64,000 nt of DNA from Chthonomonadales bacterium (GTDB lineage: Bacteria; Armatimonadota; Chthonomonadetes; Chthonomonadales; CAJBBX01), in contig JBBIPC010000002.1 of assembly GCA_037443035.1 (NCBI GenBank), positions 229,620-293,619 on the forward strand, written 5' to 3'. Below, one piece after another: positions 57,001 through 64,000 of the stretch. Position 1 is the first letter of the stretch, and each line of letters starts with the position of its first letter. The position numbers are program-made.

Positions 57001-60000
57001 CGTTCGGGAGGCCACGGGAATCCCTTCGGCTGCAGCGGCAACATTGGCGTGTTTCCAGCCACGCTCGCACAGCAAGCTCGGCGCTTGAACAGCGTGGCAG
57101 GAATCGCATGGACGAGACTGGGACTGTCGTGGGAACAGGTCAACCCCCTGCCCGGCGTCTGGGTCTGGGATGCACCGATTCTGATTCCCGGAAGTGCCGG
57201 AGCGGCTCTGCGAACGGGAGGTCGCGCCTACGTCAGCGACCGCCCGCTACCACGTGAGTTGGCAGACGAGATCACCATCGCCTTCTGGGCGCGGACCAAT
57301 CGGCCGGGTGTGAGGACCGTGTGGCCGGTCGTGTGTGAAACGCGTGAGACAGGCCGCATGTGCGGAACTTACCTACAGTGCTCGACAGGAAGCTTCGGTT
57401 TCTCGGCCGTCTACGAGCGCATGCCAGGAGTGATCCAAGCGTTCGATGCGGGCGAGAGTGTATGGGACGGTCAGTGGCATCACTACGCCGCGACCTACTC
57501 GCGTTTCATCAAGCAGGTGTGCCTGTACGTGGATGGGATTGCGAGAACCACTGCCGTGCATGACGGAGGCGCCATCCGGCTTCCGTCCACGCCGCCGCGC
57601 CTTGGCAGTGGCGGCTCGCTGGACCTGGATGACGTGCTTCTCTATCGGCGAGCCCTCGGTCCGGCCGACATTGCCTCGCTCGCACGCAGGAACACTCCAC
57701 CACGCGACGGATTGGTGACGGCGTGGGACTTCGACTCCCGGTCAGCCCCTATGCGAAGCGCCACAGATGGCGCAGTATTGGCAGTCCGCGAACCCGATGG
57801 CATTCGCTGGGCGACGGAGGCACGATCCCGCGGCCAACGGGTGCTCGGCATCTTGGGCTTCCCACCAGATTGGGCTGTCCACTCCGCAGAAGGTGGTGTG
57901 ATCCCAGATCCGGCTGCCTGGTCAGCCTATGTCGAGCATGTCGCGAGGCAGTACAGACCGCTCATCAGCGATTGGGAGATCTGGCATGAGCCTAACAACG
58001 AAGCCTTCTGGCCAGAACCGAACCCGGGGAAATACCTGACTGCATTGCAGGCAGCGTACCGTGCGGCTAAGAGGGGCAATCCGCAATGTAACGTTGTCAT
58101 GCCCGGTCTCGCCGGTCCGGATGAGAACGGGAGTGGTATGGAGTATCTGGCGCGACTTCTTGCCCTCGGCGCCTCCCGCTATTGCGACGCGATCTCTGTG
58201 CATCCAACGCGCAACGCCATACCAGAGCGAAGCGGATTCGTGCGCCAGCTTCAGCGGATTGCCGCCCTCGCGGCAGCGAACGGACGGCGCCGACCGATCT
58301 GGATCACGGAGATGACCTGGTCCACAGAGCCGGTCTCTGGCGTCTCTGAGCGGAAACAGGCAGCGCTTCTGGCACGCACCTGGATTCTTGCCTTGGGCAC
58401 CGGTGTGGTGGACAGGCTGTTCTGGTTCCGTTTCCATGACTCGGGCCCTGACGGCTTGGTGCCTGAGGAGAACTCGGGTCTTTGTCGGCACGACCTCAGC
58501 CCGAAGCCGTCCTTCCTCGCTCATCGTACTCTCGCCGTTCTGCTCCGCGACTCCAAGCCACTCGCCGCTATCAAACTGTCGTCGGACGTATATGTCTGTT
58601 CATTCCGCTCTGGCTCAGAACGTCTGGCCGCGGTATGGTCCATTTCCACCCCCAAGGCTCTTGCCCTAGCCACAGGCCGGCCAGAGATACAGGTCACGGA
58701 TCTCATGGGAAACTCGTCCCTACGCAAGACCGATGAAGGGATCCTCCTTCTCGAAGCCGACGATCTACCCGTGTTCGTTCGGTACTTACGCCCCTCCGCC
58801 CGCTGGCTGGAGCCCCCACTCACGCTTCCCGACAAGGAAGCAACCCGCGGCGGTACAGTCAAGGCCACGCTTCGGCTTCGCAATCCGTTTCGATCCACCC
58901 GACGAGTAAGACTGACTATCTCGGCAGACCAACCGCTACTCAGAATCCGTCCATCTGCCGCCGAAGTGGCGCTTCCACCCGAGGGGACGTCCCTGCTGCA
59001 TCTAGAGCTAGGCGCGTTGGCCAGCGCGCCCATCGGCTCAACGACCCTGCGCGTGCACGCAACCTACGAGCGTATGGGCACACCCTTGCGAGACGCCACT
59101 GCCGCTTCGAAGGTCGCGACTTCGTCTCGGATTTCTATCCGTTAGCCCGGGCGATGCAGGCTCGGGCAGCCTCCACCATTGGGACCAACCTTGGCGTCAG
59201 CGCCGTGCCGATTTCCGCCGCAGCCAGACGTCCTGAACCAGGTGCGCGGCACCTCCGAGAAGATGTCGCAGATACAAGGGCCAGACAGGGTCGTGATCCT
59301 GCCTTCGGTATCGCCAACGCAGGTACTCAGGACGCGGGATAGCCATCCTCAGAAGATACCGTACCCGCGCCAGCCAACCTGGAAGTAGTCTGATCATTGC
59401 CAAGCGGTGCACCAAGCCTTCGGTCAGTCGCCGCCTGCCATGGAGCCGTGCCATGATGTGCACGAGGTCATCAGCCGAGAATGGTGGCGGCACGTTGTCC
59501 ACCGCTGGTATGCGAGCATCCACATGCGTGTTGACGAAGGCGGCGATTGCGGTCACCTCTTGACGAACGGACCACCTCTCTGCGGTCTCCCACATCCGCG
59601 CCCAACTACGTTGTCGCTCAATGGCACGGGCCAACAGCAATAGGTCCGCCACGTCCTTGAGGTATGGGATGCTGCGCTGGTAGTGGGTGTACAGGTGTAC
59701 TGCCGCATGGATGAACGCGAACTCCACTGGCAATGCCTCTGCTCTACCCCACTCACCCGACAGGGTGACAGCGTTGCGCCAGGTGTCGTCCACGGAGACG
59801 GTGCGGTTGCCGTAACCGTGCAGGAAAGCGCAGTGGAGCTCTAGAGGGAGGGAGTTGGCGCGAACTATGCGGAGCCCGCCAAGATAGGTCAGGTTGAGCC
59901 ACTCGTCTTCGGCGGAGAACGCTGTGCTCTCCTTACGGTAACCGACAGAGCAGAGCACGTCAAGTGCCTTGCCTACCTCGTGCCACTGCACGAGAATGTC

Positions 60001-63000: not shown

Positions 63001-64000
63001 CACATCGAACGCTTCCACCATGGCCTGCGCGATCTGCTCGGGAGTTGTCTCTGAAGCAAGGCACTGCCAGATGAACTTGCCAGTGTCGTTCAGCACTACA
63101 AGACCGTTCATATCTACAACGCGTTCGCCGGTAGGAATAAGCACCGACCCTTCACCGACGACGCGCATGACGTAACCGCTTCGAGCTTTCACTGTGTGGG
63201 TCTCCTATACTGAACGCGGCCAAGCGAATGCGGCTCGGTCCTACCCAGTGAGGAACACAAGCCGACACACGCTTGGCGCGCGGGGTATTCAACACGACGC
63301 TGACGGCCACGATTTCCACTTCGAGGCCGTCTTCTCAGCACTAGTGCCCCCGTCACTGGAGGATAGGGGCAAACGAATGAACGGGTGCTGGTACCTAGCT
63401 CGACTGGAATGACCCACCCATGGGATCATCGCACTAGTCATCGCTCGGCGTCTTGCCGCAGAGCATGAGTCTCTCTTCTGGTTCCAGCTCCACGAACGCC
63501 AACGAGGGCTTGTCGTATCTGCGCTTGCCCCCGGAGACGTCGGCATCATGGCGTACTCGATTAGCACTACTCATGGGATACTCGTTCCTTCCTCTCGATA
63601 AAGCTCGTACGAATGCGCTTCCGTGCGCCGAACCTCTGTGGCATACTCCCTCTGGGCGCACGGTGCAACGTGCCTACGTCACGCTGTTCTTACTGACGAG
63701 GTACGCCCTCGGAAAGTTCCGCCCCGTCCTCCTTATGGCACCCTCTAACGCTGGTACCCTCGACGGCGTCCGACGGGTCCGACAACACCTTCTGCGCACA
63801 CCAACCTTACCTTTGCACGCCCAACTACCGTATTGTAACACGCGGCTAGCTGATTCGTCAAGGCGCGTTCGTTCGATTGTCGCTTCTACGTCACCCTCAC
63901 CGCTTACGGGGAGGGTTGGCCTGGGAATCTCCACTCCTACTGCGGCAGCTCCCTCCCTCCCCGCCTGCGGGGAGGGTGATGCAGCAGATGTTGCCTGCCC

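Follow-up and report, generated by a model that had tools for sequence, protein, structure and literature searches.

A putative radical SAM RiPP operon with phospho-tailoring genes, and an in-frame stop codon in its precursor gene, in a Chthonomonadales bacterium

The window (the whole stretch of 64,000 nucleotides analysed, from a Chthonomonadales bacterium) carries a six-gene RiPP operon that, with a probability of about 0.55, couples a cross-linking radical SAM enzyme with the phospho-tailoring genes of linear polyphosphorylated peptide (LPP) and paeninodin clusters; the product would most likely be a small cyclised peptide whose final residue bears a phosphate-and-sugar tag. The six-gene set is genuine and common in uncultured bacteria, and the precursor copy in the window contains either a nonsense mutation or a consensus error (Table 1).

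Table 1. Positions of the operon and of neighbouring features in the window.
Feature	Positions	Strand	Evidence
NTP_transf_5 nucleotidyltransferase, 439 aa	59197..60516	-	PF14907, 120 bits
SpI-like (S24/S26) peptidase, 161 aa	60500..60985	-	Pfam/NCBIfam; no clear transmembrane segment
HprK-like kinase, 292 aa, GTG start overlapping the radical SAM stop	60982..61860	-	Pfam, NCBIfam, motif
Radical SAM/SPASM enzyme, 355 aa	61857..62924	-	Pfam Radical_SAM; model pLDDT 95
Stand-alone RiPP recognition element (RRE; PqqD family), 93 aa	62911..63192	-	PF05402, 63 bits
Precursor gene, 59 codons, broken at codon 47	63395..63574	-	colinear with intact P0063
In-frame TAG (codon 47) immediately upstream of the second Cys codon	63434..63436	-	sense codon in relatives
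ECF-sigma-like promoter, GGAAC-N18-GTC	63695..63720	-	motif in upstream regions
Sigma-70-like promoter, TTGACG-N18-TACAAT	63832..63861	-	motif in upstream regions; predicted function
Short palindromic repeat, outside the operon	63891..64000	.	contig end; blastn and read depth

The six minus-strand ORFs described in the genome-wide survey's note were borne out at 59197..63574. In a Pfam scan, PqqD, Radical_SAM, and NTP_transf_5 exceeded the cut-off and Hpr_kinase_C and Peptidase_S24 fell below it; as also noted there, none of the six proteins reached an NCBIfam cut-off among the matches listed (for the radical SAM enzyme, the best 25 of 62). The five enzyme genes, in the order RRE, radical SAM, kinase, peptidase, and nucleotidyltransferase, overlap by 14, 4, 4, and 17 nt. 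A single 50,611-nt contig from sequencing runs X1-X3 spans 59101-63919 with 236 differences and 1 gap. One close copy of the radical SAM gene was present in the whole genome, and a search of viral contigs with radical SAM patterns gave 0 matches.

The TTGACG-N18-TACAAT motif was present in 7 of 11 upstream regions from the same phylum, against 0.0002 per shuffled region. GGAAC-N18-GTC, which we take to be ECF-sigma-like from its consensus, was found in 7 of 11 regions, all kin (0.016 per shuffled region), and its strict form occurred at chance level genome-wide (4 seen, 5.4 expected). The repeat at the contig end gave 9 blastn rows in the genome (one being the query itself), 6 of them <200 nt from a contig end, and its read depth was 249 versus 38 (run X1). 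The earlier concern that further genes are missing beyond the contig end is unlikely to apply to the operon start, since a conserved promoter sits between the precursor and this terminal repeat.

Using a leader-only profile, we collected 60 precursors of a family that spans many phyla and has the consensus YxxP…PEEAVLGAC K…C…C…GS. The EERLM-Cys peptides, for which the family had been named, proved to be a two-Cys subclade of this wider family; the motif PEERL[ML][AS]C.K, thought to be common to all peptides, does not hold even for the window peptide, in which Leu precedes Cys, and beyond the subclade the usual reading is PEEAVLGACK. Two or three Cys were found in 59 of the 60 precursors (the window's has one), and the C-terminal residue was Ser in 52 and Thr in 3, compared with Ser in 17 of 228 neighbouring enzyme ORFs. 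The family thus departs from the proposed single invariant Cys and short core. Leu occupied position -3 from the first Cys in 51/60, and position -1 was Ala, Ser, or Gly in only 39/60 (Leu in the window). Throughout the core, conservation was confined to Cys, besides the terminal Ser; Cys spacing varied widely, with no fixed acceptor residue evident.

Among 97 loci chosen by the radical SAM gene alone, many of them cut by contig ends, the RRE was present in 83, the kinase in 74, the peptidase in 64, the nucleotidyltransferase in 35, and a precursor (E<0.05) in 54. The gut Clostridia clade and several contig-edge loci yielded no such precursor, and the match at L057 was rejected as due to chance. 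The reported occurrence of the peptide in relatives of the same taxonomic family was upheld (7/23 other genomes). None of 34 precursors reached an NCBIfam cut-off, and our literature search found no paper on this six-gene family; atlases of radical SAM RiPPs and their supplements may list it as an unnamed cluster. The analysis thus outlines a sizeable radical SAM RiPP family that has no name, occurs in mostly uncultured bacteria, and has a precursor overlooked by gene callers and family libraries.

The window precursor had been described as a 46-aa peptide with one Cys and a short core. This was not confirmed: the ORF stops at a TAG where relatives have a sense codon. Beyond the TAG (63436-63434), the same frame continues as CDDPMGGSFQSS up to a second TAG, giving a full-length frame with a YxxP leader, Cys40, Cys48, and a terminal Ser59. 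A near-identical strain (radical SAM enzyme 351/355 identical) possesses an intact 59-aa precursor, P0063, with two Cys and a C-terminal Ser, colinear with and 50/59 identical to that of the window. Codon 47 was a sense codon (Ala, Ile, Val, or Glu) in this strain, in the four closest genome loci, and in each of the 5 metagenome matches (of 6) that are true relatives. That the 46-aa form is nevertheless the true precursor is very improbable: it matches the ORF as deposited, and a single Cys also occurs in one relative (L062, E 0.3), but it lacks the terminal Ser and the multiple Cys of nearly all family members, and the nearest strain has the long form.

Read-through of the TAG, by pyrrolysine or recoding, to place a special residue beside Cys2 is suggested by the intact downstream sequence, and was largely refuted. 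No PylS over the cut-off was found in the genome, rated 100% complete (a control genome set gave 1), and none of its 48 tRNAs has a CUA anticodon; ARAGORN may miss tRNA-Pyl. In addition, TAG is a common stop here (814/1989 long frames), the residues at codon 47 in relatives are ordinary and differ, and the remaining in-frame stops in the precursor family are TAA and TGA. A second flag of one TAG (G163:C152) was merely the terminal stop. With no pyrrolysine system found, the choice for the window copy lies between a nonsense allele and a consensus error. An assembly error, with an intact 59-aa precursor in the organism itself, is a real if lesser prospect: the 46-aa form is recorded from only one contig, that of the window, the 12 residues beyond the stop are fully family-like, and one relative has Glu (GAG) at codon 47, one base from TAG. 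On the other hand, codon 47 is highly variable, three of codons 44-47 are different in the nearest strain, whose Ala codon lies two or more bases from TAG, a similar stop falls between the two Cys of one of three tandem copies at L063, and selection could be relaxed by two intact paralogues. These are the two further peptides on contig C12, whose presence was substantiated, and both have Cx9C, a terminal Ser, and TAG as the end stop. If the TAG in the window is real, they would be the usable substrates, the window's own precursor lacking Cys2 and Ser59. An experiment built on the 46-aa gene as annotated would use a truncated substrate. The corrected precursor allows the predicted ring formation at two or three Cys and the phosphate on the last Ser to be tested, and gives a defined substrate for NTP_transf_5 enzymes.

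From gene anatomy, motifs, conservation, distribution, and the stop codon, all directly established, we infer the following chemistry. The RRE, the nearest solved relatives of which are TbiB1, 9x8z_B, 9x90_B, and TfuB1, would bind the YxxP leader and present it, by analogy with LPP and lasso systems. The SpI-like peptidase, with Ser30, His69, and Asp84 invariant in 42 rows and SEC11C/SEC11A as the best solved matches, is likely to remove the leader with help from the RRE. Its LPP counterpart LppS has the catalytic residues S29, H68, and D93, and its cleavage is RRE-dependent with Phe at -3; a cut after Leu-x-x, before the first Cys, is the simplest assumption here, and we make it tentatively.

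The SPASM enzyme probably forms thioethers between the thiols of core Cys and carbon atoms of further residues in the core. It contains Cys34/38/41 and seven SPASM Cys (255, 273, 308, 311, 317, 320, and 339), which were kept in 94-98% of 100 rows with no conserved eighth in the linker; these seven probably serve two auxiliary clusters, leaving one free iron site. A three-Cys AuxI with an open site has been described for thioether formers (PMC6231123, PMC10452713), as has the spacing CX2CX5CX3C, compared with CX17C…CX2CX5CX2C…C in the window enzyme. The nearest folds were SkfB, BlsE, SuiB, CteB, PqqE, and anSME, all at <=20% identity, a comparison that leaves the chemistry undecided, and the hits of an ESM Atlas search were confined to hypothetical proteins and radical SAM clusters without a name. 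The same operon might instead perform other radical SAM chemistry (a C-C link, epimerisation, or AhbD/MftC-like oxidative decarboxylation), with the Cys forming disulfides or binding metal, which we consider unlikely. The best NCBIfam scores were to AhbD (112 bits), NirJ2 (94 bits), and MftC (93 bits), none of which is known to form thioethers; the CX2CX5CX2CX18C tail is AhbD-like, SuiB and PqqE are as near in fold as SkfB and CteB, and the Cys spacing is loose. However, all three scores were far below the cut-off, the three Cys of most members are an odd count for disulfides, and Cys is the sole residue kept throughout the core besides the terminal Ser. Kinase-less lineages retain the enzyme and Cys and drop Ser, which speaks against Ser being the radical SAM substrate.

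The HprK-like kinase appears likely to phosphorylate the C-terminal Ser, as judged from its motif, conservation, and joint loss. It has His146, Lys167, and Asp185-Asp186 (numbering from 61863), the His-Lys-Asp-Asp motif of lasso kinases (PMC9266682), and C-terminal Ser phosphorylation has precedent in lasso peptides. In four genomes without a kinase match genome-wide, MAGs of unstated completeness, the precursors end in E, Q, V, and E, and in three with the kinase located elsewhere, Ser was retained. Across 60 loci, Ser was terminal in 52 and not in 4 (ending in Thr or Pro) where the kinase was present, and in none of 4 where it was absent; the Fisher p of 0.00014 was set aside because the loci are kin and not independent. 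The joint loss amounts to 1-2 independent pairs (sign test, p 1), and a single clade was not rejected (AU p 0.287). A possible counter-example, L106, with a Ser-ended precursor and only a partial kinase match genome-wide on a contig ending just past the peptidase, was left out of this table; counting it gives 1 Ser of 5 without kinase.

The nucleotidyltransferase, with Asp171-x-Asp173 invariant in 21 rows and no solved relative at E 0.01, may well cap the terminal phosphate; the most likely outcome would be a sugar-phosphate, by analogy with PsmN of pseudomycoidin; PsmN needs its DxD pair, hexose addition is PsmN-dependent, and the NTP_transf_5 reaction is unsettled in both the pseudomycoidin and LPP work. 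A more specific extension is doubtful: in a thioether-ringed peptide, this enzyme would join the terminal phosphoserine to a sugar chain, and the peptide would prime, anchor, or tag a surface polysaccharide or a secreted partner protein. In 96 family loci (one representative per group scanned), Wzc-like genes occurred in 13, polysaccharide-export genes in 5, and giant surface proteins in 18; no polysaccharide genes adjoin the window's cluster. Orphan precursors lie directly behind an unknown secreted protein in four genomes, one with a second nucleotidyltransferase adjoining, LPP and paeninodin clusters are also located in capsule loci, and the ECF-type promoter motif at 7 of 11 loci is compatible with this reading too. 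If true, this would be a widespread RiPP class acting in envelope construction and not as an antibiotic.

The earlier claim of an undescribed RiPP class stands as far as a radical SAM RiPP cluster, an unnamed precursor family, and an occurrence far beyond the phylum are concerned; its gene set has precedents as a design, since parts of it recur in LPP, paeninodin/pseudomycoidin, and SynChlorMet clusters. LPP are linear polyphosphorylated peptides of Bacillota (Popov et al. 2026, PMC13381572), and their clusters have five of the six gene types in the core. Shared features are the YxxP leader, discrete RRE, SpI-like Ser/His/Asp peptidase, HprK-like kinase, and NTP transferase, and LPP clusters are often beside polysaccharide genes. 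The window family differs in its spread over many phyla and in adding a cyclising enzyme, the radical SAM/SPASM protein, with two or three core Cys; the main text of the LPP paper does not mention rSAM, SPASM, or radical. The YxxPxVLxHQxIxFETxxS motif with phospho-Ser3 is absent from the window family, in which the conserved Ser is C-terminal, whereas the LPP phospho-site is Ser3 and not the terminus, and lppN deletion changed nothing. The LPP core includes an MsbA-like exporter; the window's cluster has no exporter gene, and an ABC exporter group was found in 26/96 family loci.

The SynChlorMet cassette (TIGR04248-TIGR04251) shares the RRE, HprK-like protein, and SPASM enzyme, and seven SynChlorMet loci contained the peptidase and nucleotidyltransferase in 7/7 and the RRE and kinase in 6/7. 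Each of the seven, however, has two or three radical SAM genes versus one here, and their candidate precursors have WxxP leaders without the EE motif or a terminal Ser. A 9-leader profile detected both C12 peptides at E<=1e-6 and nothing under E 1.7 in the seven loci. The window proteins scored 29, 24, 78, and 92 against the ScmC, ScmD, ScmE, and ScmF cut-offs of 125, 100, 400, and 400, which true members pass, and in a tree with a SynChlorMet enzyme as its root, the SynChlorMet enzymes fell outside the family of the window's radical SAM enzyme. The window family is a sister of this cassette.

Sacti- and ranthipeptide systems (SkfB, AlbA, CteB, and PapB) resemble the window family in a Cys-bearing precursor, an RRE, and a SPASM enzyme with seven Cys, the AuxI site of which is probably open. 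They differ in that here the RRE is a separate protein, identity is <=20%, phospho-tailoring genes are added, and the thioether is a prediction; the radical SAM enzyme scored 59, 43, and 78 against the AlbA, SkfB, and StsB cut-offs of 850, 300, and 625, in each case well below. The kinase and nucleotidyltransferase pair is known from paeninodin and pseudomycoidin, with which the window family shares the His-Lys-Asp-Asp kinase, C-terminal Ser, DxD nucleotidyltransferase, and discrete RRE; in place of a lasso cyclase and B2 peptidase, neither of which is among the six genes, it has the radical SAM enzyme and S26 peptidase. In its predicted mode of action the window family combines tailoring of the LPP and paeninodin kind with a radical SAM enzyme; it lies outside the LPP, paeninodin, and SynChlorMet groups, and would exemplify radical SAM cyclisation in place of a lasso cyclase on a shared phospho-tailoring set.

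All six minus-strand ORFs described in the genome-wide survey's note were present in the window, and, in agreement with its claim of no curated match, none of the NCBIfam models listed reached its cut-off with the six proteins. Among the cluster proteins, PqqD, Radical_SAM, and NTP_transf_5 exceeded the Pfam cut-off; Hpr_kinase_C and Peptidase_S24 were below it. Between neighbors, the five enzyme genes share 14, 4, 4, and 17 nt, and the kinase most simply starts at a GTG. Ahead of the peptide gene are two promoter motifs, one sigma-70-like and one ECF-like, and each of them occurs in 7 of the 11 upstream regions compared among relatives; a repeat beyond them forms the contig end. 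Therefore, the operon looks complete at its 5' end, and further genes are unlikely to be hidden there. A convergent gene meets the 3' end.

The peptide had been proposed as a 46-aa precursor with one Cys. This required revision: its ORF ends at a TAG (codon 47), past which a family-like frame runs on, reading CDDPMGGSFQSS before a second TAG. The pattern Cx8C-DDP…S is stop-free in the four closest genome loci, and, of six matches in a metagenome scan, the five true relatives all have a sense codon at this site. A 50,611-nt contig from a sequencing run (X1) covers the cluster at ~95% identity. In the protein collection, a near-identical strain (radical SAM differing at 4/355 residues), represented by a contig equally long, encodes a precursor of 59 aa in which codon 47 reads Ala and 9/59 residues differ from the window's; the 46-aa form was recorded from the window's contig only.

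We regard the TAG as more likely a nonsense allele (probability of approximately 0.6); a consensus error is a less likely alternative. Read-through is very improbable because PylS over the cut-off was absent from the genome, no CUA tRNA was present among its 48 tRNAs, and TAG is a common terminator (814/1989 long frames); the median number of codons to the next stop (37.5 after TAG vs 29 for TGA and 31 for TAA) also argues against it. A similar stop is carried by one of three tandem precursor copies at another locus (L063), and L132 looks like a decaying cluster. The two further peptides reported on contig C12 are uninterrupted, show Cx9C, and end in Ser. Each enzyme is present in the genome as one close copy, and a second, distant nucleotidyltransferase lies on contig C32. 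The window adds a corrected two-Cys, Ser-ended precursor, its premature stop, and intact copies in trans; the kinase and the terminal Ser having been lost together (see below) is also counted among its contributions.

Positions of features in the window and in compared loci (L numbers)
Feature	Locus	Positions	Observation
1090-aa protein	window	55873-59145	LamG domain, weak glycoside hydrolase match; converges on cluster end
Kinase start	window	61860	GTG
Precursor	window	63395-63574	Three of the changes vs nearest strain within codons 44-47
Premature TAG	window	63436-63434	
Palindromic repeat	window	63891-64000	Further copies near ends of contigs C7, C9, C25
Third tandem precursor	L063	7331-7560	TAA between two Cys; Glu there in sister copy
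Degenerate precursor	L132	7240-7520, 7992	In-frame TGA, then repeat of core
Radical SAM match	L132	beside degenerate precursor	Covers residues 2-140 only
C32 nucleotidyltransferase	L167	8958-10232	NTP_transf_5, 25% identical; no other cluster gene matched on contig
S24/S26 domain in-frame with ~2200-aa protein	L081	10396-17034	DUF11 repeats, C25 peptidase domain (this protein scanned)
S24/S26 domain in-frame with ~2200-aa protein	L099	10378	
Second, longer HprK-like ORF (~400 aa)	L040	5938-7143	3' of kinase
Second, longer HprK-like ORF (~400 aa)	L041	2170-3357	3' of kinase
Single precursor between two family radical SAM genes	L039	7539-10107	Kinase of this genome in second cluster (L040)
SynChlorMet candidate precursor	L152	9769-9984	WxxP leader, Cys every ~10-11 residues, no terminal Ser
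SynChlorMet candidate precursor	L153	11075-11290	As L152
SynChlorMet candidate precursor	L154	11421-11663	As L152
C12 orphan group	L160	5644-10106	ECF sigma, RseB-like, 401-aa secreted protein, two precursors

Radical SAM matches at E 1e-40 were found in 38/401 genomes of the phylum, and at ≥47% identity in 12/401, including the window's; the peptide was found in 7/23 other genomes of the window's family. A species-genome scan matched at least 605 stretches, from which 79 loci were kept; among the matches listed, record titles included Acidobacteria, Deltaproteobacteria, Nitrospirae, Myxococcales, Omnitrophota, Clostridia, Chlorobium, Pirellulales, Aminicenantes, and others. The 97 loci examined (79 scan loci, 19 fetched, and the window, minus two duplicates) contained RRE in at least 83, kinase in at least 74, peptidase in at least 64, and nucleotidyltransferase in at least 35, these being lower bounds because contig ends truncate many of the loci.

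A peptide profile recovered 56 proteins among 339 candidates, 50 of them Ser-ended; none of the 34 scanned reached an NCBIfam cut-off. The profile was rebuilt from leaders only to remove C-terminus bias, and of the 71 rows that it gave with E no higher than 1, 60 precursors (E<0.05; 54 loci) were retained. Three Cys were found in 42, two in 17, and one in the window's; the last residue was Ser in 52, Thr in 3, Pro in 2, and Arg, Glu, and Asp in 1 each (11 excluded rows: Ser 6, Thr 1, Gln 2, Glu, Asn), against a background of 17 Ser-ended among 228 neighboring enzyme ORFs. The EERL type, mostly two-Cys, formed one clade (20 rows; support 97/92), and most members outside it had PEEAVLGACK with three Cys. 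A Clostridia clade (L067, L080, L104, L112, L114, L125, L130, L131, L133, and L137) has the gene order kinase-radical SAM-RRE, often with a giant VWA protein nearby; no precursor of the YxxP-leader type was found in these loci.

In the radical SAM enzyme, ten Cys (three SAM-cluster and seven SPASM) were conserved in 94-98% of 100 family rows, and the linker had no conserved eighth. Thioether-forming enzymes are described, in the available text of PMC6231123, PMC10452713, and PMC9389541, with a three-Cys AuxI and an open site, though non-Cys ligands occur too. The confidently predicted structure (pLDDT 95) was nearest to SkfB, BlsE, SuiB, CteB, PqqE, and anSME (identity of 20% or less), a modeled likeness that leaves the type of reaction undecided; our best guess, somewhat favored, is that thioethers are formed.

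The peptidase has invariant Ser30, His69, and Asp84 across the family, and its best solved matches are SEC11-type. In LppS (S29, H68, D93), the leader is cleaved only with the RRE, with Phe at -3 (PMC13381572, available text). Since Leu is kept at -3 from the first Cys in 51/60 precursors despite a Tyr-to-Cys distance of 19 or 20, the sequences suggest a putative cut directly before this Cys; however, no more than 39/60 have a small residue at -1. An LPP-style count of 16 residues from Tyr would instead place the cut after EE-R/A. The nucleotidyltransferase conserves a DxD pair of the kind required by PsmN, which adds one or two hexoses onto the phosphoserine of pseudomycoidin (PMC6993621, available text); deletion of lppN was without effect according to the accessible part of PMC13381572.

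The window kinase has His146, Lys167, and Asp185-Asp186, a motif reported in the available text of PMC9266682 for lasso kinases acting on C-terminal Ser. No kinase match was found in the whole genomes of four EERL-clade loci by single-protein and 41-row profile searches; the last residues of their uninterrupted precursors are E, Q, V, and E. Three genomes without a kinase in the cluster have one elsewhere (43-44% identity) and keep Ser. Over 60 loci, 52 with kinase had Ser and 4 did not, and 0 without kinase had Ser and 4 did not, a joint loss that represents 1-2 independent events and is not a significant test. In this comparison, four rows were entered by hand, the window's precursor was taken as far as its second stop, and one Ser-ended copy sufficed for a locus to count as Ser. 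L132, whose radical SAM is broken, was excluded, as were six loci that had no kinase in the stretch; one of these six, L106, has a Ser-ended precursor and only a partial genome-wide kinase match.

Neighbors shared among 96 loci included an ABC exporter in 26, large surface proteins in 18 (the one scanned had a C25 peptidase), Wzc-like proteins in 13, and polysaccharide export in 5. The C12 peptides directly follow a 401-aa secreted protein without a Pfam family, itself preceded by genes for an ECF sigma and an RseB-like protein. An orphan precursor also follows a homologous protein in genomes G199 and G163, and in G399, where the protein is broken. In G163 (L179), an ORF similar to the C32 nucleotidyltransferase follows the orphan precursor. 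The 401-aa protein matched 8/401 genomes, five of which hold the closest clusters; because the genomes are kin, its pairing with the precursor is a lead.

The cluster is real, widespread, and uncharacterized in searchable papers: no paper on the family was found in the literature searched, some likely sources lying outside that search, and the available text of PMC7470986, PMC4289311, and PMC13692751 does not mention it. LPP clusters, as presented in the accessible part of PMC13381572, have five gene types in common with the window cluster, but their precursor differs and their core lacks a radical SAM gene; the term itself figures a single time in that source, heading a column of a domain matrix. 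Seven SynChlorMet loci, found through ScmF, have the same accessory genes, but carry two or more radical SAM genes rather than one, have precursors unlike those of the window's family, and pass cut-offs that the window proteins miss. Therefore, with accessory genes shared and radical SAM genes, precursors, and cut-offs differing, the window cluster resembles LPP and paeninodin tailoring in its workings, with a cross-linker added, and belongs to none of LPP, paeninodin, and SynChlorMet.
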